DNA of 64,000 nt from contig OZ231126.1 in NCBI GenBank assembly GCA_965153355.1, positions 11,966,001-12,030,000 on the forward strand. The letters are read 5' to 3'. The position numbers and the translations under genes are program-made. Positions within the stretch are counted from its first letter, which is position 1. Each line of letters opens with the position of its first letter. Shown one piece after another: positions 356 through 62,370 of this stretch. Below the pieces are notes generated by a model. The model was not told the DNA's origin. It saw nothing but the letters and a program-made list of their open reading frames with translations, and ran no database searches. Source of the DNA: Flaccisagitta enflata. Its lineage: Eukaryota.

Positions 356-3300
356 CGGTAACGCGGGATCAATCAGTCCTTTGTCCATTCTCCTTTTGGG
401 AGAGTTGAAGTGGAGATATGGAAGCACTTCCGGTTTCTTCGGATCCGGATTCTGGCGTGTGTTGACGAGGAAGTCGGTCTTCAAGACTTCGGGATCTTCC
501 GGCACGAGGAAGAAGCGCGACCTGAAGCATCCCAACTCCTCAAACTCACCGTCGAAACATTTCGTCAACAGAGACCGAGTCGCTGATAGCAATTTGTTTT
601 TGTAAAACGTACAACAAAGAATGACTCAATGAATGAATGAATGAATGAATGAATGAATGAATGAATGAATGAATGAATGAATGAATGAATGAATGAATGA
701 ATGAATGAATTTATGAATGAATGAATGAATGAATAATTGAATTGATTAAGCTGATAGAGCGTGTCGACTTCTTATGTTTTTGTTCTGATCTCTTCTTATG
801 AGTCAATGGATGAGTTTATGTGTGAATGAATTACTGAATGAATGAATAATCACTAGAAAGTATAAACCATCGAATGCATGAACGAATAAACGAATGAATG
901 AATATTTGAAGGAACGGACGAATCAATCAATCAATCAATCATTCAGTGGATCAAAAAATCTGAACAGTATCTGGGTCCGCGACGGTGGGGGTTAAAGATC
1001 AATTCCATAAGATCGCTTTGACCAAAAGATCGCTAACTCTGTAAGTTTGCTAAAACTTTACATTTAGAGCCTCCGTACAAAGTTTCATGCAAATCCGTTT
1101 AAAAATGGCAAAGTTATGCACATTTTTCACTTTGAGGCTAGTAGGGTAGTTGGGTGGTAGGCTGGTTTGGATAAATAGTGCGCATATGTTGAGTTCTTCC
1201 ATTTAGAGACTCCATACCAAGTTTCAACCAAATTGGTTGAAAAATGTCCAATTTATGCAAGTTTTTCACTTTTAGACCAGTAAGCTGGTTGGGTGTTAGG
1301 TCGGTTTGGCAAGTTAGCATGCTCAAACATAAATAAATCACATATGTTAGAAATGTATGTCCGTCCGTTTCTTAAGTATGTGTGCTTTTGTTTCTTTTGC
1401 GTGCTTTGGCTTTTCCTCTTTCTCTATTATTCAATGCCAGCGTCTTTTGTTTCTCGCCATTTTTTATATTGAACGCTAGATGGGTAACCATATGGTTGCG
1501 CCTTGTATTTTGTGCCATTTGTTTTTATTACGTAGGCATACATACGTAACTCGTCTTTCGTATCATCCAATTTTTGGATTGATTGATTTTATTTATTTGC
1601 GGCATTGCTTCTTAAAGTGATTGATTGATTTTTCGTGATCGATTGAATGCGCCCTTGGAATTCACTAATTTCAATAATCTCTCATCTTTTTCTTGCAGAT
1701 AAACTTATGAACGGACAATTAACGTTAGTTTGACATCGACAGACTGTGGGTTGAAACCAACGAAAGTGGGCCTAAAAGTAAGTTTTATAGACGCGTCTTT
1801 TCTTTTATTAACGTTGTTTTTATCTTGTCTTCCGGTCTGTTATTTTTGTCTTTTGCCCTTTTGCATTTTTATCGCCGGATTTTAGTATGGTTTTTATCGC
1901 TTGCCCGATCAGCTTGCTATAGGGATGATATGGATGAATTTAATGGGATGGGCCGGGGCAGGGGCAGGTATTATCAGGTGGCATGGGCTCTGAAGAAGAT
2001 GAACATGTTGTCATGTGCTGTTTCTGTCCTTTATTGTGTCCTGTCTCGATTTCATGTTATCTTTTGCGTTTGCTGATCATCATTAACGCCCACTTTCCCT
2101 TTCATTTTTCCCCCTCTCTTCAGTTGTTGAAATTTTTATGGAATAAACGAGACGATCGCCTTCCTATTTTCCAATCGGCCAACTTTCTTTCACCACAAGT
2201 CGTCAGTCAGATAGACGCTCATAGACAGTGCCAGTTGAAACTCGTGGGCGTAATCATATTTCAACAATTTAAAAAACGACTCGACTCTTTCCATCTTCGA
2301 CCTCCGAAAACGAAATTGGACAATGGCAGCCGCGCGCAACGACGACACCGTCTCGACCGCTTCAACGTCATCTCGTGTATCTCACTTCGGTTTGAATCAG
2401 TGTCCGAGGTCGAATCGTTTGCGCGCAATGAGGAACGACATCACTGCGGAAATGGAAGGATGCCGGCGCCTTTTCGACGCCGTTTCTACTTGCACCGAAG
2501 GAACGAATGACTTCGACGACACCGCCTGTGAATCAGATGGCGCTCGACACGGCCTTCGGGATATGGTCTACGACTTTATATCGTATGCAAGGCAAATGGC
2601 GCTCGACTCGATGCCCGGCGACCCTCTTCGATTCGCGGCGTCTACTTTGCGTCGAATCCGGCGCGAATGGGACTCCATGCGTTTCTTTGATCGGGAGAAC
2701 TATCCAGAGGGTTTTCCTTCCAACGCCGACATCGTGAACGCAGTGCATAACGACATCGGGAATCGCAAAAGACCCGTCAATGAATTCTCATGGAACAGTC
2801 TCCCAACTGACACTCACGCCGCCCGTGACAATGTTACCGGCGCTCCGACTCCAAGGATGCGAACGTCTTCGCCAAACCCCGACGGATCCGAGTATCTACC
2901 ACTTCCGGTCCCGCGACATGGTGCGCAATCTCCAACTGGCGGCCAATTTTTAAATCTGCCGCCGATCCAAAGAGGAGATGCCGTCAATCAATGGGTATCA
3001 GATTTGGTCTCGGAAATTGAACCTGCGCGTGCGTCTCCGATGGAGCAAGCTGACGACATGCTTGCGGATCTCGACGACGCCGACGCTCTTGCAAGAGGCC
3101 GCGGGATCATCAACGGATTGACGCCGCAGGAGAGGGCGAGGCGACGCTTCGTCAACAGGAGTGCTGAGAGAGACAGATGGGGTAGGCAGTTGGAGGAGGA
3201 AATGCGACAAGGCCGTCGGCTGATTGACGATATGCAGCAGCAACAACGGGAGGAGGAGCAGCGACAGCAACAGGAGCAACAGCAGCATCAATTGCAGATG

Positions 3301-6300
3301 CAGCAGCAGCAACTCCAACAGCAACGTCAACTCCACCGACCACAGGAGCAGCAGCAAACGACGGCTCAACGGCAGCAGCAAGAGCTGTTGCAGCAGCAGC
3401 AGTTGCAGCAACTCCAACAATTTTGTCAACAAGATCAACAACAACATCAGATCCTGCAGCCGGCGCCACAACCTGTAGCTCAACAACAGCAACAACACGA
3501 CCAACAGCAGCAACAGCAGCAACAGCAACAACAACAAGAGCTGCGACAACATCAAACGGCAATGCAGCCGCATGAACAACAACAACAGCGGCAAAACGAT
3601 GCAGGAGAACATATGCAACAGCAACTGCAGCAGCAACAGCAACCTTCCGCCGCGATCCCAGCGGTGGTAGTGGATCCTCCAGCTTCAAATAACCATCCTG
3701 TCGAAAGCATGAACGTCAGTGAGGAGACAGAAGAAGAGAGACAGCAACGCCTTGCAGATCAACGTCTGCGCATGATGGCTGAAGGTGAAGGTGGTGGTGC
3801 AGCAACAGCTCCAAAGGCGCCGATCGCGGTGCCATTGGGATTCCAACAGCGAAGCTCATCACAAGAAGACAAAGAGTTATACGACAGAATGTGTAACTTT
3901 CGCCAGCAGCAGCAACGAGATGAAGATAGAAGAGCAGGAGTATTCAACAATGCGGCAGAAATGCAACGAAAGCACTGGAATAGCCTGAACGACGGCGGCA
4001 TTGGTGGAGCTTTAGAGCAGCGGGATGTGAAGCTTAGACAACTGTCTGAGCTGGACCAGCAGCAGCCGCAGCATCCGCCGAAAGACCGTCGATCCATCTT
4101 CAGAAATTTCAATCCGGGATTGTTCAATTCGAACATACAGCAACGTCATGTGCAGTCAGTGGAAACGTCCGTCAAGCAGCCGATGCAGCAGCAGCAACAG
4201 TTGGAGCAGCAGCAGCAGCAAGGACAGCGTCAGCGTCAACTGCAGCAGCAGAATGAACAGCAACAGCGTCCTGACCAGCAACAGCAGCTTCAACATCAAC
4301 AGTGGCAGCAGCAACGGCTTCAACAACAGCAACAGCATCAGGATCAGCATCATCAAACCCCAGCAGCAACGATTCTCCCTACCGCACCGGAAGTGATCTT
4401 CGAGAAGCAGATTGGTTCTGCTAGAAGGGAGACTGGTCTTCCCCATCAAGAGGAAAAGGTCTTCAACACAGCCGGAAGCGGAGGTGATGCAACGGAGGCG
4501 ATGCGCAGGAGGCAGAAGCAGGAGGCCGCTGACGCGAAGTTGGCACAGCAGCTGCAAGATAAAGAGAGAAGAAAAGTCGCTCCCAAGAAGACAATGAGTG
4601 GATTGCAGCCGAAGGCGCCGAAAGTAGCGCAAGCGCCTCTAGCAACGCCTCAAGCGGAAGTCATCCAGCAGAATCAACGTTTGCAGCAGGAAGTGGATAG
4701 TTTGAAGATGCAGATTCAGCAGAGAGACTTTGACCTTGCTGCAGCGAGAGCAGAAGAGAGACAACGCGAAGAAAAACAACAACAGCGACAGTACGTCCGC
4801 CAAGATTTTGATGCTCCCCGATTCCATCAAGATGATCGTCAACAACAAATGAATCAGCAAGAGGAAGTTGGGTGGAGTGTAAAAACCACCAAAAAGAGAT
4901 CTCCGGTAAAAGTCGGGGGTCAATACGCGTTTACCCAACAACCCCCAGCGTATCATCAAGTGGAGCATCATCAAGTAGCCCGTCAACCGGAAGTCCACGT
5001 TCAGATGCCCAACAATCCGGCTCTGGACAGGTTTTTGGAAAGAGCGGCGTACAATGATCTCATGCGAGCAAGGGAGGTCGGCCTCAAAGCGTTGGAGAGA
5101 GCAAGACCTGAGAAGCCTCTGCAGGAGCTTTCATCCACCGACTTCATGATGTGGAAGAGGAAGTTCAAAGATGCTGAGAAGCATGAAGGCTTGACGCAAA
5201 TGGACATCTTATTGGAATTGCCTAAGTGGTTTGCTGGTCCGGCAAAAGAGATCATTGAAACTGCGACGATTGATGCAACTGAAGCGACAGCAAGAGGAGA
5301 GATTGACGACGCCTTCGCAAAAATGGACGTCGTCTTTATGGCAAGGCGCTGCAACATTGCGGCGCTGTTCAACGAAATCGTCGCGGAGGCGAAGATCCAG
5401 TCGGCCGACCATGCAAGGCATTTCAATTTGTCTGCAAGGTTGCAAAAGGCAAAGAAGATTGCGAGGACCTGTGGAGAAGTGCAACAATGCTATCGTGACG
5501 AGCTGCTGCAGGAGATCCTCAATAAGAGGGTCCCTCATCTTGCAGATAAATTCTGGGAAAAGCAACATGAAGCAGCCCAAAATGGACAGTTATTTTCATT
5601 CGACAACTTGGTCAACATGATCGAGACTTGGGCGGTGATTCAGCGCAACAAAGGCGCAAGTTGCAAAACAGCATCAGTAGCAGCAGTTGCGACGACAGAA
5701 AAAGAGGCGCCTTCATCATATGAGGACGCCTTGACCAATGGCAAGCAAAAGGTGCAGTCGACGGACCGCTGCAACGTCTGCAGTGGAATGCATCAAACGG
5801 AAGAGTGTCATCAATTGTTAGAGTTGGAAGTGGACGCGAGAGTTCAGAAGATCATGTCTCGTCGTCTTTGCTTCCACTGCCTCGCGCCAGGTCACAACGC
5901 CAAAGGATGCGCGAACAGACCAACTTGCCAGACCTGTAAGAAGCGGCACGCGACTATTCTCCACGGGCGCACCTACAAGAAAGAAGAAAAGGAAGAGAAG
6001 AAAGGAGAAAATAAGCAGGGAAATAAAGTACCGCTGGCTCCCTTCAAAAAGTCAGAGGATGCGGCTGCAGCAGCACCAACAGCTCCGTCGACGACGGAAG
6101 CAGCCGATCCAACGGAAATAATCTCTCCTAACGCCACGGCATGACTGGCGGCGACGGCAACGTCGCGGTCCATCTCTTCATTCGACAACGTTGTCCGTCC
6201 GATCGTTCCAGTGACTATTATAAACAATTCTTCGGGTGCGCAGAGGACGATATACGCTATGATCGACTCAGGCGCTGATCGCGACGTGATCAGTACCAGT

Positions 6301-9300
6301 GTCATTCGCAGTCTTCTGATTCCAACAAAAACAGTGCAAATGACGGTAATTACTGTGGGAAGTCATGTTGTTGAGGATCGTTTCATCGCATCATTCACCA
6401 TGCAATCGGTCGGCGAGGAATATGTCGTCGACGTCAACGACGCGTTGGTGGGTGATTTGTTAACGAGTGAACGCGACATTCCTCCTTTTCTCCGCGACCT
6501 ATCTGACCAACCTCACATCAAAGGCATAAAATTTCCAGAAGCTGAAGGCGGTGTGATGATGATCATCGGAGCGGCGCATGCGGATGCCGCCGTCGCTCAA
6601 GAAATCCGCCGAGGGCCTTCAGGATCTTTGACTTGCTTCAGATGTCTATTCGGTTGGACTGTATGTGGAAAAACGGGGAAGAGAGGACGAGATATTGCAT
6701 CGATCAATGCTATCGCGACGGATGACCGCGTCCTCAACGACAACATCGATCGCATCCTCGACAATCGCGTCCTCAACAGCAACATTGACCGCATCTTCTA
6801 CCATGACTTTGCATCGTCAATCGTCTCGCAAGAGGAGATGGGTGATTCCCTGGAAAACATCAGAGCGTGCAAAATGTTAGAGGAAAAGACTTATTTTTGC
6901 CCGATTGTGGGAAAATATTTTGCTCCCGTCACATGGAAATTTCATCACGACAAAATCATGGAAATTCTGAGAAGAGTGAAGTCACGACCTACTGCGATGA
7001 AGCGGCTCGCCAACCAACGCTTCCGCTTCAAACGTGATCCAGCCTTTAAAGAAAGAGTCTTCCGTGAGATCGAGAAATTTTACGAGACGGGAGTGGCGAT
7101 TGAGATCAACAGCGTCGACGACGACGACAGCATTGAAAAGCCGCGCTGGTACTTACCACTTCACGTTGTGGAATTGCGCGGTAAAACGCGCGTATGCCAC
7201 GATGCGCGTGCGGCGACCGACGGGATCTCACTCAATGATTTGCTCGTCGGGGGTCCAAACTTGATGAATAGCTTGATGGACATCCTCATGCGTTTTCGTC
7301 AGTGGAAAATCGCCTTTATGTGTGATATAAAGGCGTTTTTCCACCAGATCCGCGTCCATCCTGACGACGCTGATCTGTTCAGATTCTTTTGGTTCAAAGA
7401 TCGTACTCTACGGGAAGCAATTTTGAATCTGTTCTTATCTCATGTCTTCGGCAGCCAATCCAGCTCATTCGTCACATCTTTCACCGTCAGAAAGCATGCT
7501 GAAGTAATCCGGCCCAAATATCCCTACAACGTCTACGATCTTATTCGCTACGGCTTCTACGTCGACGACGGAAGTGGGGGTGGGGATTCGGTCGACGAAG
7601 CACTGCAGCTGAAGGTGGATTCAGTGGCGGCGATGGCTGAAGGCGGGATGGACCTTGTGAAATGGAAGAGTAATGCGCGGCAATTGATGGATGGAGATCC
7701 AAACGTTCCAATCCCCATCTCAGATAAGCAAGATGATGCGCCGACGAAGGTGTTGGGCGTCTCATGGCTTCCGGCGGAAGACGTCTTTATCTTCATCTGC
7801 GACGAAGAATTCAAAACTCTTAGAGCAAAAACACCTCGTCAATTGGTCTCCATGCAAGCCAAACTTTATGATCCATTGGGATTTTGGAGCCCAAGCGCAT
7901 ATATCGGCAGACGACATCTTCAACTCTGTCGTCCACAGGAAGTGGGATGGGATTCGCCCTTGGAAGAGAGCGTCGAGGAATCCTTCTTCCGCTACACTTC
8001 ATCTTGGCCTCTTCTACAACAATACCGAATTGAACGCTGGTGGAATGGCGGCGTCGACAACAGCGACATTGCGGAAATCACAATTGAGATCTTTTGCGAT
8101 GCGGCTCCAAAAGGCGGATATGGAGCAGTTGCATATCGACGTCAAGTCAATCGAGATGGAGGTGTTCACATTTCATTCATTGCCTCCAAATCTCACGTCA
8201 TTCCACTCAATCCAAAACGTGCTTCTCATCACAACAGCGTTCCACGCGTCGAGATTGTATCCGCAGAAAAAGCAGTGCAGCTCAAACGCTTCGTCGGAAG
8301 GACCATCGACTTGGACAATCTTGTCGTAAGATTTTGGTCTGATTCTGAATCTGCACTGAAGATGATTTACAATCCGGCGAAACCGAGGCCTGTATTTTTC
8401 GCCAATCGTCTCTCCAAGATCCATAGTGGGTCTGATCCTCAACAGTGGCGCTGGGTTGACTCGTCAAACAACCCGGCGGACCACTGTAGCAGAGGCATCC
8501 AGGCCCATGAAGCCGAAAAATGGCGTCAATTCCATCACGGTCCCGCATTTTTGCGTCTTCCCGAAGATCAATGGCCAAAGACGAACATCGCGACGTGCCC
8601 TATTTCTGCACAAGTCGCCGCATTGTATGTGGCTGAAAGTGAAAAGAAACAAGTGGCTGACGCGATACTTCTTGCAGCAGCTTCTCGGGGAAAATGGATG
8701 CATAAGTTGCGGATCATCGGCATGGTTCTTATCGCAGTCAAAAGGTGGAGAGCGTATCCAAGGGCGAAGACACGAGCAGCAAAGGATCTCCTTCCTAAAC
8801 CGGAAGTGACGCAAGACGTTTTGGAGGAGGCGCGCAAACAGCTCGTCAAGTCAATGCAGCGGCATCATTATTCCGACGTCTTCGAACAATTGGAGTTGGG
8901 AAAAGTCTTTAAACCAGAAAGCCGTCATGACTTCATCATAAAAATAAGGAGATGCGAAACTGGAATCCTTTACCGACGACGACGGTATCCTTCGCGTCGG
9001 CAGCCGATTGGAAAACGCCGACATCGCACATGACGCTAAATTTCCCTTCATCCTGCCGCCAAAAGACGAGAATGTGAAATCATTAATTCGCCATTATCAT
9101 CATAATGATTTTCACGCGGGTGCAAAGCATACATTGTGCCAATTACGCCAATTTGTGTGGATTACAAAAGGTCTTCAGGCTGTCAAGAGCGTCGTCAACA
9201 CGTGCTTCAGATGCCAGAAGAACTTTAAAAAGAACGCAAATCAGCAAATGGCCAATCTTCCATCAAATCGCGTCAATCCTGCGCCTGTCTTTGCAGAGAC

Positions 9301-12300
9301 TGGATTGGATGTCATGGGGCATTTCCTAGTTAAAATGAACGGGCGTGCTGATCATAAGGTGTGGATCGCAGTGTTCACCTGTTTCGTGTCACGCGCCGTC
9401 CATGTGGAATTGCTCTTCAACATGTCAGCCGATGCGATGGTAAATGCAATCATCCGCTTTGCAGCAAGGCGCCCAGGAATCCGCCGATTCACGTCAGATT
9501 GCGGAACGAATCTAGTTGGCGCCAATAATATCCTCAAGAAGGAAATGGAAGCTTGGAACCGCTCGTCAACTTCCGAATTGCAGCGGCGCGGCCTTCGGTG
9601 GGATTCATCACGCCGAGAACACCCCACTATGGAGGGGTGTGGAGAAATCGTCTCTCTTTTTAAGCGCCATCTTGCTTCCATCTCGACTGGCGCCATCCTC
9701 CACGCCGACGCCTTCAACACTGCCGTTGTCGAAGTTGAAGGAATTCTCAATCGCCGTCCTCTGACAGCGCTCAGCGATGATCCAAATGACTCTGAGGCCC
9801 TCACACCGAATCATATCCTCAATCCATCAACATCCGGTCACGTCCTCTAGATCTGGTGCAACAAGGCGTCAACTCTGACGCCGACTCGCGAAGATTCAAT
9901 GGAGGCGTGCGCAATCGCGTGTGGATGCGTTTTGGAAATCGTGGAGGGTCGAATATTTGCCGCTTCTTCACGCGCGAAGCAAATGGTCGAGATCCGAGAA
10001 AGACTTTGCGGTTGATGACATGGTCATCGTCATGGACGAAACGCTGCCTCGTCACAATTGGAGTTAGGACGTGTCATGGGCGTCGCGGGATCGTCAGCCC
10101 GTCCGGAGGGCTCACATCCGGCGCCAAGATGGAAAGATCGTGACGAAAGACCGCACGGCTCGTGCGGCTGGAATTGGACTCATAAAAAACGCTAAGTTTT
10201 GAGAGAGAGAGAAAAAGGCGCATGGGCCTGTCCATTAGTAACTATAGATATGAGTGATTGAAACTCTGACTTGTTATATTTACAAAGAGTTGTTATTATT
10301 CATATTTGGTTCTGATTATCCATGCTTTCATCTTTCCTCTTGTCAATTATGTTGTCCATTTCCACTTACACAAAAACACTGATTCATTCGCTCTGTCTAT
10401 ATGTACATATTATTGTGCCAAAATCCGTTCTTACCATTATCAGTTCTCATTACGAACATTTCAAAGCTTCCGCTGACGACGTCATTCCATCTACGAAGTC
10501 AGTTCGCATCTTGAAGTCGCTCGTCGGAGTCAAGATGTCCCGTCAGCAGCGTCTCGAGGCCGAAGCCGACGTGTCGACGTCGTACGGATCCTTGGATCTC
10601 CATCGACTCTTCAACGACGGCTCGACTCGAGAAGGATCTGCATCCACGACGTCGTTCGGGGCGGAGGAGGAGTGCTGTCGTGCTGGTACCAATGGCGACC
10701 TTCTGCCCACGTGAGACGCAAAAATGGCGAATAAAAAGCGTCAACAAGATGATGCGTTGGTGAATCGTCAACAGCCATCCAACGCCGTTGATCCTGCGTC
10801 GCTTCCTCCATTGGTGGTCATCAGAGATGGAGGTTCGAGGCGGATCTCGATCAATCGGCCGCCGACGGACTTATCCACCACTGCCGCGGCGGCGTCATCA
10901 TCATCGGATTTACCCCCATCGCCTCGCCGATCCGGCCTTGATTTCGGTCGCCCAGCGTCTCGTGATCAAGCGCCTGCAGCTGCATGTCAACGCAGCGGGG
11001 GCGAAGAGAGAGAGAGATCGGTCAATGATGGAGCAAGAGTGGAGGAGGAGGGGGTGGAAACAGAGGAGGAGGTGTTAGTGAATGGGGAGGCGGTGGAGAA
11101 AGACATTGACCCGGAAGTGGACACATGTATCGCCGGAAGAGAAACACCAACGGATGCAGGCACGTTGGTGGTATCGCATCATCAGGTCCGACGCCGGAGT
11201 CTCTCCTCTTCAAAGAGTTTGGAAAACTTTCAGTAAAGGCAACAAACAAACTCTCCGCGCTCATCGGCTAATCAAACAGAGCTTGGCTCGGAGACTCTGG
11301 AGCGCAAAATCCAAAGTAATAAAAGAAGGAGGGAGCATGATAAGTATGTTCGCCGCATTGTCCAGGCGACGAAGAGGAAGAATGCGGCTCCGGCCTCTGG
11401 ATGCAACTGCACTTTCATCTGCAGCAAATTCGCCGACGCTTCCGCAACTCCACCAGCGGTATTTGTGCTCGACGCAGCCGCAGCTACATCAGCGGCAATT
11501 CACTCTACAGCATCAGGAAGTCGCCAATCGCGCCCTGGATTGGTTCATCCCCCAAATCAGCAGCAACACAGGGTCCTCGTGATTACCCCTCACAACAGTC
11601 GAAGAGAGATCACGTCGGGGAAAGACTCCACAAACGCGTAATGTGCCGAGTCAACAGTGTGGGCCAGATTCCAAAAGCAAAGGCCCCTTCAAGCGCCTCC
11701 AAGCGCGCCCTCTGAGCAGTACGCCCAAAGGCCAGGAGAAGCTTCGTGGTTCGTCGACGGCAACGTTGGCAGCAACCCAGAAGCTGAATCAGGCTGCCTG
11801 GGGCAGCGGCAGCAAAGGGAAGAAGACCAAGAGAGCTGGGAAGAAGCATAAAGCAGCAACCAAGGGAGGTTCTACTTGCGGTGCTTCGGCGCCCGCTGTT
11901 AAACCTCAAGTCTCTGGTCAGCAGACGGGAGCGTCTTCCTTTCACCCGCAGCCATCAAAAGCAGCGGTGAAGAACTAGTTGGCGGTGCTTCAGCATCTGT
12001 TAAAGCTGGTGTAGCGCCTCGTCAGCAAACCAGTCTGCCAAGGTCTGCAGCAAGTGCAGAACCCGCTCCCTCGTCGGATCCAGCCTTTGATCCTGCGCAT
12101 GGACACACATCGCCGAGTCATTGCTACGAGAAGCCTCTTCACTGACCTCAAACGCTCCATTGGGTGTGGTGAAGAATTTAGCATCAAGGCTTCCGAAAGA
12201 CTTCTTCGCGTCGCTTAATCCGCGTCAACGAGTTGAAGCGGCTCGTCAAGTCTTAGACGAGAGGATTCGTCGCAACATCCAAAAGGAGAGAGACGATGCT

Positions 12301-15300
12301 CGTCAGCAGCAATGGCTGCGGACAATGAGGTGGTCAAAGGCAATAAGCGAGTCGTGGAACTGGAGAAGCAGCTTGAAAAGGAGAAGCAGGCCTGTGCGAT
12401 GAAGGCTAAGAAGAAAGAGGAAGCCGTGGAACGCGCAAAGGCGGCTATGGCCGTCGACTTTAAAACTGCGTCCGCTGTGCGCCCCATTTCGACTGGCGCC
12501 GAATTGCGATGCAGCATCTCCACCTCCAGCGTCTTCTCCTGCAGAAGAAAAGTCGGTCAGCAGATCCTGTCGCAAAAGACGCTCCCAAGCCTGGAAATAA
12601 GAAAAATCGAACCAGGCCTTGGAAAATCAGACCGCCAGTTAAACACTGATTGGTGCCACGCAGTTGCTGTTCAATTTAACTACGAATTTGCAACATGGCG
12701 TGGAGAGCGCCGCCATTCGCTGAGGATCGTATTCCACCATCACATCCTCATCCCATCGATGGACAGGCCGGCCAAGTCGGGGGCGCTACCGGGCGTGGGG
12801 AATGACGTCCGCCGGGGCCTGCGAAAACGCCCGCAGTATCATGGTTTGGGAAGGGTTGAGGTTGAGTTTTTGTGGTAAATTTGAATCTGTGTACGATAAG
12901 AACTTTACTAATCAATCTGCCCCATTTTTTTCTCTTTCTTTCTTCCTTCGGGAGGACATATTCTCAGACGGCTGCACCACCTGCTTTCGATGCGGTCGCC
13001 GTTGACGACTTCATTCATCGCCTTCGCCCACGGATTGACGAGGTGTTGGAGCCCCGAATGACCCGCTCGTCTCTGTAATGGAGAAGGCGCAGGTGATGTG
13101 GTCGTTCCATGATGCTTGCTGTTTTTTTTTTACCTTACAGATTCGTTTTTATATATAGTTAGTAACTTATTTATTTTGTCTTGTTTTGTTTGGTTCCTTG
13201 GAACATGTACATTTTTGTTTTGTTTGTTTTAGACATGGTCTTTTTAGTCATTATTACGAATACTTTCGTATGACATGTTTTAGTAGTATGCCCCTACTCA
13301 TTATTTTCCACTCTTAAGTCAAATCCCAGGCTTGAGTGCTCAGGTCGTTCCCCTTTCCCTCATCTCCTAACTTTTACAGAGCGGGTGCCTCAACCTCCTC
13401 CTCGCCGCCTCGTCTCCATCCCGTCATCGTGATGGTTGAAAATTTGCTGGTGGTGGATCCTTTCCGGACGGGAATCATCATTCGTGCAGTCATCGATCTG
13501 TTGATAGTTAGGGTGGGACAAGAGGCGGTGGACGAGGGGCAGGGGCTGTGTGTAAATTTTTTAAGGAAGGTAGTATCGGTTTTTAGCAGGGTTTCCGACT
13601 GGAAACTAGGTGTTTGATTTTTGAAATTCGTGAAATTCCAAAATGGGGCAGAATGTTAGAAATGTATGTCCGTCCGTTTCTTAAGTATGTGTGCTTTTGT
13701 CTTTTATGCTTTTGGCTTTTCCTCTTTCTCTATTATTCAATGCCAGCGTCTTTTTGTTTCGCCATTTTTATATTGACGCTAGATGGGTAACCATATGGTT
13801 GCGCCTTGTATTTTGTGCCATTTGTTTTTATTACGTAGGCATACATACGTAACTCGTCTTTCGTATCATCCAATTTTTGGATTGATTGATTTTATTTATT
13901 TGCGGCATTGCTTCTTAAAGTGATTGATTGATTTTTCGTGATCGATTGAATGCGCCTGGAATCACCACTTTCAATAATCTCTCATCTTTTTCTTGCAGAT
14001 AAACTTATGAACGGACAATTAACGTTAGTTTGACATCGACAGACTGTGGGTTGAAACCAACGAAAGTGGGCCTAAAAGTAAGTTTTATAGACGCGTCTTT
14101 TCTTTTATTAACGTTGTTTTTATCTTGTCTTCCGGTCTGTTATTTTTGTCTTTTGCCCTTTTGCATTTTTATCGCCGGATTTTAGTATGGTTTTTATCGC
14201 TTGCCCGATCAGCTTGCTATAGGGATGATATGGATGAATTTAATGGGATGGGCCGGGGCAGGGGCAGGTATTATCAGGTGGCATGGGCTCTGAAGAAGAT
14301 GAACATGTTGTCATGTGCTGTTTCTGTCCTTTATTGTGTCCTGTCTCGATTTCATGTTATCTTTTGCGTTTGCTGATCATCATTAACGCCCACTTTCCCT
14401 TTCATTTTTCCCCCTCTCTTCAGTTGTTGAAATTTTTATGGAATAAACGAGACGATCGCCTTCCTATTTTCCAATCGGCCAACTTTCTTTCACCACAAGT
14501 CGTCAGTCAGATAGACGCTCATAGACAGTGCCAGTTGAAACTCGTGGGCGTAATCATAACATACATGTGTTGAGTTCTTCCATTTGGAGACTCCATACCA
14601 AATTTCAACCAAATTGGTTGAAAAACGCCAAAGATATGCACATTTTTCACTTCTAGGCTGGTAGGCTGGTTTGGTGGTAGGCTGGTTTGACAGGATAAAT
14701 AGTGTGCATATGTTGAGTTCTTCTATCTAGAGACTCCATACTAAGTTTCAACCAAATTAGTTGAAAAATGACAAAGTTATGCAAGTTTTTCACTTTTTGG
14801 TCGGTAGGCTGGTTGGGTGGTAGGTCGGTTTGGCCAGTTAGCATGCTCAAATGCATATGAATCATATACATATGTTGAGTCCTTCCATTTAGAGACTCCA
14901 TACAGTGGGGTTCGTGGAATAACAGCCTAAACTGGAGGAAGGTATTTAAGTGTCTTAATTTCATTTGACAAACTTGATATTTGAAATATAAGTTGTTCAC
15001 TTGATGCTTTTGTTGCTATGGAAACCAAAATTATTTTTTCAAACATTTATAACCACTAAAATACCAATATTTTGAAAAATATTGTCAGGGAACATTGCTC
15101 AAAATTAAATTTGCTACAACTTTCCCACAGTATGTCCTGTAAGAATATTGCTCGTTTAGCCGTTGCCAGGGAGCATCATTTAGCGGTTGCTAGGTGTGAT
15201 GCCCCCTAGCAACGGCCAAACGAGCAATATTCTTACAGAACATACTGTGGGAAAGTTGTAGCAAATTTAATTTTGAGCAATATTCCCTGAAAACATTTCT

Positions 15301-16156: not shown

Positions 16157-62370
<46,214 letters not shown>

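Follow-up and report, generated by a model that had tools for sequence, protein, structure and literature searches.

What does a retrotransposon carry between pol and its 3' long terminal repeat (LTR) when the sequence there does not resemble an envelope (env) gene? The question arises at a BEL/Pao LTR retrotransposon of 13.2 kb, the single element of its kind within a 64,000-nucleotide stretch of Flaccisagitta enflata contig OZ231126.1 (hereafter the window; all positions are those of this whole stretch, position 1 being its first letter). A first-pass annotation of this DNA had proposed that the 3' region of the element encodes an uncharacterised accessory protein other than env. Our reading, which we regard as likely, is that this region preserves, in decayed form, a real third gene (open reading frame 3, ORF3), specific to its family, of a large BEL/Pao element, with a putative trans-acting, nucleic-acid-binding accessory role.

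ORF3 is open in many natural copies

The window copy of the third gene (ORF3; 10535-12642, forward strand, GC 0.554) is broken; an AT-rich spacer (10186-10534, forward strand, GC 0.375) separates it from pol. This difference in composition bears out the spacer described in the first-pass annotation, and the start proposed there, an ATG at 10535 followed by the reading MSRQQRLEAEAD, is indeed present. The coding length given there, 2.5 kb, needs correction: the sequence is GC-rich and coding, but it ends at the natural stop TAA 12640-12642, after about 2.1 kb, while the GC-rich composition runs on to about 13080.

With window frame 2 over 10535-11638 as the query (stops written as X), HMMER returned eight hits among 1.84 billion representative proteins, all belonging to one family, and no relative outside the ORF3 family was found among these representatives. 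The best hit, P0007 (703 residues), aligned from residue 1 with an expectation value (E) of 1.6e-141. A word-based search with P0007 gave the full-length proteins P0015 (710 residues), P0016 (709) and P0017 (705), 87-92% identical, together with two shorter proteins. The 213-codon window frame at 12237-12875, used as a further query, gave four proteins; P0003 and P0004 unite the lysine-rich stretch, the helix and the C-terminus in a single frame.

At 90% identity the family forms four clusters of 81, 87, 11 and 4 members, none of which bears a name. The annotated gene had been staked on an open frame in the family, and such a frame is present in 34 of the 45 listed cluster members (703-803 residues, all distinct and from different contigs); four short listed members (81-176 residues) were excluded from the family alignment. 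The 34 natural proteins vary at 194 of 703 columns. They start with MSRQQRLEAEAD; in seven of them the frame opens 40-93 codons earlier and runs without a break across the end of the spacer. All end in KNQTAS or nearly so, which matches the window stop codon. Intact natural copies thus encode a protein of 703-710 residues. Because 34 distinct natural frames of at least 703 residues are beyond chance, ORF3 is, as far as sequence can tell, a real third gene of the family.

It could still be argued that there is no gene here, only chance open frames of GC-rich sequence compounded by automatic gene calling on metagenome contigs, as the lack of a long open frame in the window copy and the nearby ORFs made by gene callers in other frames (P0005, P0006, P0011) might suggest. 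Chance frames would hardly share a start, a stop and a length of 703-710 codons in 34 distinct listed sequences, or differ between clusters by frame-preserving changes in length, both of which are seen here, and we regard this explanation as extremely improbable.

More distant relatives (P0009 at 45% identity, P0012 at 58% and P0013 at 41%) keep the helical block of ORF3 best. Against P0009, residues 190-285 are identical at 63 of 96 positions and free of gaps; the N-terminal part is identical at 71 of 147 positions, with 42 places gapped. This best-conserved block (residues ~190-285 of P0007) corresponds to 11104-11400 on the forward strand of the window, where it is split over five frame segments.

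Further searches added no relatives. Neither 598 pattern matches among JGI metagenome contigs nor 108 in IMG/VR included an ORF3 relative, and a pol query for related copies found only two 1.1-kb gag/pol contigs. Longer or fused forms were sought among 8000 scored candidates, none of which matched above 1231 residues, although this is weak evidence. A recently captured host gene, the other outcome that the first-pass annotation had considered, finds no backing: the eight hits among the representatives are all of ORF3's own family and longer proteins gave none. With no outside relative, nothing therefore points to recent capture of a known host gene. A tblastx comparison of 10186-13653 with the remaining window sequence found no similarity at E <= 0.01, so ORF3 is not a duplicate of gag or pol; a tblastn match of P0017 to the Q-rich gag region (E 2.9e-4) is compositional.

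The breaks of the window copy extend beyond ORF3

Read by frameshift-aware alignment to the natural protein P0015, the window ORF3 aligns over 692 codons, 627 of them identical, in 18 frame segments. It has accordingly undergone at least 17 frame changes, and it carries one in-frame stop (10712-10714). Seven of the 17 frame-change sites lie near a run of at least three equal bases, against a background of 33%, and the breaks are therefore unlike simple homopolymer errors.

Part of 10500-12900 is shared by 20 listed sequencing runs from 12 studies, comprising marine metagenomes and one organism (A); five are RNA libraries. The best share of its words in any listed run is 0.39, and none reaches half. 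We compared 5900-13700 with four runs: X1 (DNA) and X13, X18 and X19 (RNA, from three studies). In X1, 14,708 contigs were placed on this interval. At five listed ORF3 indel sites, 44-55% of the X1 depth is unlike the window state; the remaining depth shares the window states, which are therefore at least partly real variants. A table of six ORF3 indel sites by the three RNA runs holds 15 covered cells, 14 of them unlike the window state, and three further run-by-site cells without cover.

The damage is unevenly spread. The pol gene is open in a single frame to about 8950 and then shows at least five frame changes in the integrase. The 6.7 kb from gag to RNase H contain no break, compared with five or more within 1.2 kb of integrase and a minimum of 17 along the 2.1 kb of ORF3. 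Substitutions are the sole differences between the window and two other gag/pol copies (50 of 996 and 36 of 1165 positions), without gaps. Just before 8974, other copies continue with sequence unlike that of the window. The pattern could reflect a mosaic copy, or else a high-copy repeat that was unevenly assembled. Decay of ORF3 only, as a sign that the gene is dispensable, can be rejected since the integrase is broken too, and the window copy is therefore silent on the dispensability of ORF3.

A basic, largely disordered protein without env features

The ORF3 protein has basic stretches rich in lysine and alanine. P0007 has an isoelectric point of 9.8, with 109 lysines and arginines against 80 aspartates and glutamates, and S, A, P, Q, G and T together make up 50% of its sequence. 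An acidic tract spans 151-180, and the nine basic clusters of the protein include KKTKR...KKHK at 427-437 as well as a bipartite-like cluster at 265-286. The acidic tract, the lysine-rich stretch and the segment NKRVVELEKQLEKEKQ singled out in the first-pass annotation are all present, in different frames of the window and in one frame of the natural proteins. The only export-signal-like match in P0007, at residues 217-227, is unremarkable.

AlphaFold2, run with 11 sequences, gave P0007 a mean predicted local distance difference test (pLDDT) score of 45.8, with 494 of 703 residues below 50; about 70% of the ORF3 protein is predicted to be disordered. Helices were modelled at 201-285, at 520-552 and, as a long helix with block pLDDT values of 79-92, at 563-649 (forward-strand positions 12215-12482). 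The conserved block modelled alone forms three helices (pLDDT 69.3, predicted template modelling score 0.29), and it carries the bipartite-like basic cluster KRRREHDKEVRRMVQATKRK. The segment NKRVVELEKQLEKEKQ had been called coiled-coil-like; it does lie within the long helix, but hydrophobic residues occupy only 7 of 25 a/d places, a count reached by 4714 of 5000 shuffles. As 41% of its residues are charged and no significant heptad pattern was found, we call it a charged helix rather than a coiled coil.

Database comparisons were equally bare. Pfam gave no family at E <= 0.01 for pieces of the window and chance-level rows only, at E <= 10, for the natural proteins, with no enzymatic domain in ORF3. 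The natural ORF3 protein had no match among PDB sequences. Foldseek returned no PDB match at E <= 0.001 for a model that is mostly of low confidence; a BFVD row at E 1.9e-4, with template modelling (TM) scores of 0.06 and 0.07, is meaningless for a disordered model, and the TM-scores of the BFVD rows span 0.04-0.13. For the 96-residue block, VIA-align returned long helices that hardly differ in score (Z no higher than 6.1), with no fold match, and the ESM Atlas held no usable match to ORF3.

These features bear directly on whether ORF3 might be a degenerate or very divergent envelope or fusogen gene, as would be natural in a superfamily whose third genes are described as env-like in PMC8742986 and PMC13524379. 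The lack of a signal peptide and of a membrane helix noted in the first-pass annotation holds for the natural protein P0007: its highest 19-residue Kyte-Doolittle mean is 1.17, and its N-terminal 30 residues average -0.72. ORF3 proteins have only five or six cysteines, and the predicted disorder and the lack of any Pfam, PDB or credible Foldseek match likewise make an envelope origin very unlikely. No relative is detectable outside ORF3's own family, and its product is therefore taken not to be an envelope protein; judged by these predicted features, it is not env-like. The proposal of an uncharacterised non-env accessory protein thus holds up well.

A putative role in trans

Composition and position suggest that the ORF3 protein would bind nucleic acid and would probably be nuclear. 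It might serve the RNA or the replication complex of the element in trans, much like CERV of the Caenorhabditis elegans element Cer1 and Rev-type proteins. Its expression could proceed through a spliced subgenomic mRNA, an internal promoter or reinitiation. As for the function itself, we tentatively name RNA export or expression control first. A chaperone for the ribonucleoprotein or the particle seems rather unlikely, to the same degree as a passenger without any role, and a chromatin tether for integration or an antagonist of host silencing would each be less likely again. A possible, if doubtful, elaboration is that of a 'complex' belpaovirus: ORF3 would be a Rev/CERV-like trans factor, arisen independently of retroviruses and Cer1, that binds the element's unspliced RNA within the nucleus, licensing it for export or packaging, with ORF3-less copies mobilised in trans.

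RNA-library contigs of X13, X18 and X19 cover 10220-12922. One X13 contig of 2190 nt covers 10220-12388, and X19 contigs lead from the integrase into the spacer (9942-10438) and from the spacer into ORF3 (10408-10703).

Several observations weigh against a functional role of this kind. The runs were compared as contigs, which show presence and not strand, ends or level, and RNA libraries may contain DNA. No splice-type joint or subgenomic RNA was seen in the three RNA runs over 5900-13700, an interval that begins downstream of the 5' leader, with 16 of 224 loose ends displayed. The basic clusters of P0007 are motif matches only, the long helix could not be upheld as a coiled coil, and disordered orphan proteins are easily over-read. 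In X1, moreover, the summed word depth is about 430,000-720,000 over pol, against about 200,000-400,000 over ORF3, whose central part reaches roughly half of the pol depth. Of the seven listed X1 joints, four are deletions that affect ORF3 or its immediate neighbourhood: three fall within the gene (10539 to 10748; 10813 to 11131; and 10548 to 12984, with 17 other letters between) and one, 12660 to 12744, starts 18 bases beyond its stop. Depth and deletions together therefore indicate many genomic copies without intact ORF3. Such copies fit a trans-acting or a dispensable gene, but they also fit a passenger.

On the passenger explanation, ORF3 would be a sequence captured from the host or from another gene and would be open only through recent expansion of the family. 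An orphan of such low-complexity composition, present at about half the depth of pol, affected by deletions in X1 and heavily broken in the window, is what this explanation leads one to expect. It does not sit well with 34 distinct listed frames that have accumulated 194 variable columns and no stop, with clusters 87-93% alike that all retain about 705 codons, or with relatives at 41-58% identity that still align and keep one block clearly better than the rest; a source is also missing, in that searches of representatives and longer proteins found no homologue outside the family. We consider the passenger explanation unlikely and retain the reading of ORF3 as a family-specific gene with a putative accessory role.

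Anatomy of the element and its surroundings

The element is bounded by a 5' LTR at 1344-2258 (forward strand, TG start at 1345) and a 3' LTR at 13653-14558 (forward strand), which blastn aligned to each other at 98.25% over 916 columns, with 5 mismatches and 8 gap openings. A 5-base target-site duplication, ACATA, flanks both ends (1340-1344 and 14559-14563).

The gag gene (2323-6144, forward strand) is an open frame of 1273 codons ending at an in-frame TGA (6142-6144). Its translation is Q-rich and of low complexity over the N-terminal two thirds and has CCHC knuckles close to the C-terminus; a Pfam search assigned no family. This gag is unusually long, and only the C-terminal part with the knuckles resembles a usual gag. 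The pol gene follows at 6145-10185 (forward strand, stop 10183-10185) and comprises protease, reverse transcriptase, the Pao 'Peptidase_A17' region and integrase. The protease motif DSGAD lies at pol residues ~42-46; Pfam identified Peptidase_A17 (residues 563-734, E 1.5e-28) and Integrase_H2C2 (E 1.4e-9), with RVT_1 (residues 375-511) and rve below the cut-off. The order protease, reverse transcriptase, RNase H region, integrase is the Pao-type set, and the two LTRs, the target-site duplication and the gag CCHC knuckles agree with Belpaoviridae.

Both genes are in one frame, parted by TGA and then CTG. The same in-frame stop occurs in a metagenome copy, L002 (about 618-620), and because of this identity pol is probably made by stop-codon readthrough.

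The profile of the International Committee on Taxonomy of Viruses (ICTV) gives Belpaoviridae genomes of 4.2-10 kb with gag, pol and sometimes env (PMC8742986). With its 13.2 kb, its gag of 1273 codons and a third gene that is not env, the present element falls outside this description of size and gene content; the ICTV figure is a descriptive range and no bar to membership, and the element enlarges the known size range of the family.

Immediately upstream of ORF3, the last ~80 bases of the spacer are in frame with it and are kept in other copies. These ~27 codons ahead of the ORF3 methionine (10455-10534; EHFKASADDVIPSTKSV.ILKSLVGVK) also contain the switch from AT-rich to GC-rich sequence, and an exon that is joined to sequence further upstream may begin here. 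Past the ORF3 stop lies an untranslated region (12643-13652, forward strand) that is GC-rich to ~13080 and AT-rich thereafter. No coding sign was seen in its GC-rich part from 12643 to ~13080; P0005 and P0006, called as ORFs over 12643-13652, lie in other frames. As a possible response element, 12643-13090 has an unremarkable RNA fold (z-score -1.20). The purine-rich tract aaaatggggcaga directly precedes the 3' LTR. Intron-like signals (GTAAAT, TACTAAT, a long pyrimidine tract and CAG) occur at 12876-12973, where reads are cut at the pyrimidine repeat and nothing is visible.

The element sits inside a repeat array: its flanks are related ~140-bp repeats (1058-1348 against 14578-14876, 85% alike), and more copies lie at 1183-1308, 14564-14689 and 14725-14833. 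Long microsatellites occur nearby, (AATG)n at 616-740, (GTT)n at 16910-17040 and (GT)n at 17639-17770. Host exons on the minus strand, at 18134-18778, 24964-25722 and 53341-53943, encode two pieces of an Aa_trans amino-acid transporter (E 3.8e-10 for one, 7e-12 for the other) together with an SPX domain (E 8.2e-8). An Rfam scan of the window gave no match.

ORF3 among the accessory genes of retroelements

PMC3118150, PMC8742986 and PMC13524379 describe third genes of BEL/Pao elements as env-like only. No non-env accessory gene of a BEL/Pao element was found in the literature searched, which excluded subscription papers, Repbase entries and supplements. Non-env third genes as such are already known from rotifer Ty3/gypsy-like elements and from Cer1; the BEL/Pao case is new within the literature searched. 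The element is abundant in a marine animal, and ORF3 is intact in many natural copies, is found in RNA libraries of three studies and has no relatives elsewhere. It also offers an abundant marine-animal system in which to ask what orphan disordered proteins do for retroelements.

The systems nearest in classification are the env-like third ORFs of BEL/Pao elements such as roo, Tas and mosquito BEL elements with a chuvirus-like glycoprotein, which share both superfamily and place with ORF3 (PMC8742986, PMC13524379, PMC3118150). These ORFs are membrane glycoprotein-like or fusogen-like, whereas ORF3 lacks a signal peptide and a membrane helix and matched no fusogen.

Bdelloid rotifer LTR elements carry varied non-env ORF3s, some of them only coiled-coil or helical (PMC5408684). 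According to the same source they are Ty3/gypsy-like, and their best-defined ORF3s are enzymes (a GDSL esterase and a DEDDy exonuclease), in contrast to the BEL/Pao ORF3 with no enzymatic domain. Additional ORFs are also known in plant elements.

Complex retroviruses encode Rev and Rex, small basic trans-acting proteins, 3' of pol, and these export unspliced RNA. They are much smaller than ORF3, are made from multiply spliced mRNAs, and combine well-defined motifs, arginine-rich and for export, with a response element in the RNA; in the BEL/Pao element the corresponding candidates, the export-signal-like match at 217-227 and the fold of 12643-13090, are unremarkable.

The closest analogue is CERV of the C. 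elegans Ty3/gypsy element Cer1, a nuclear protein whose ORF occupies the env position and which has no homologue elsewhere (PMC10309623). CERV combines a basic motif of the nuclear-localisation type with a zipper-like helical segment; acting in trans on the RNA of its own element, it is required to export the unspliced genomic form. CERV and ORF3 are alike in their env position, their lack of env features, their basic nuclear-localisation-type motifs and their lack of outside homology. They differ in that CERV has 517 residues and comes from a five-exon spliced mRNA sharing gag exons, whereas ORF3 has about 705. CERV belongs to another superfamily, Ty3/gypsy as opposed to BEL/Pao. No sequence relation between the two was found, the search of representative proteins having returned the ORF3 family only, and the likeness rests on described features, with no claim of family membership. 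Set beside these systems, ORF3 adds BEL/Pao to the retroelement groups with regulatory or accessory proteins of their own, namely complex retroviruses, Cer1, and rotifer and plant elements.

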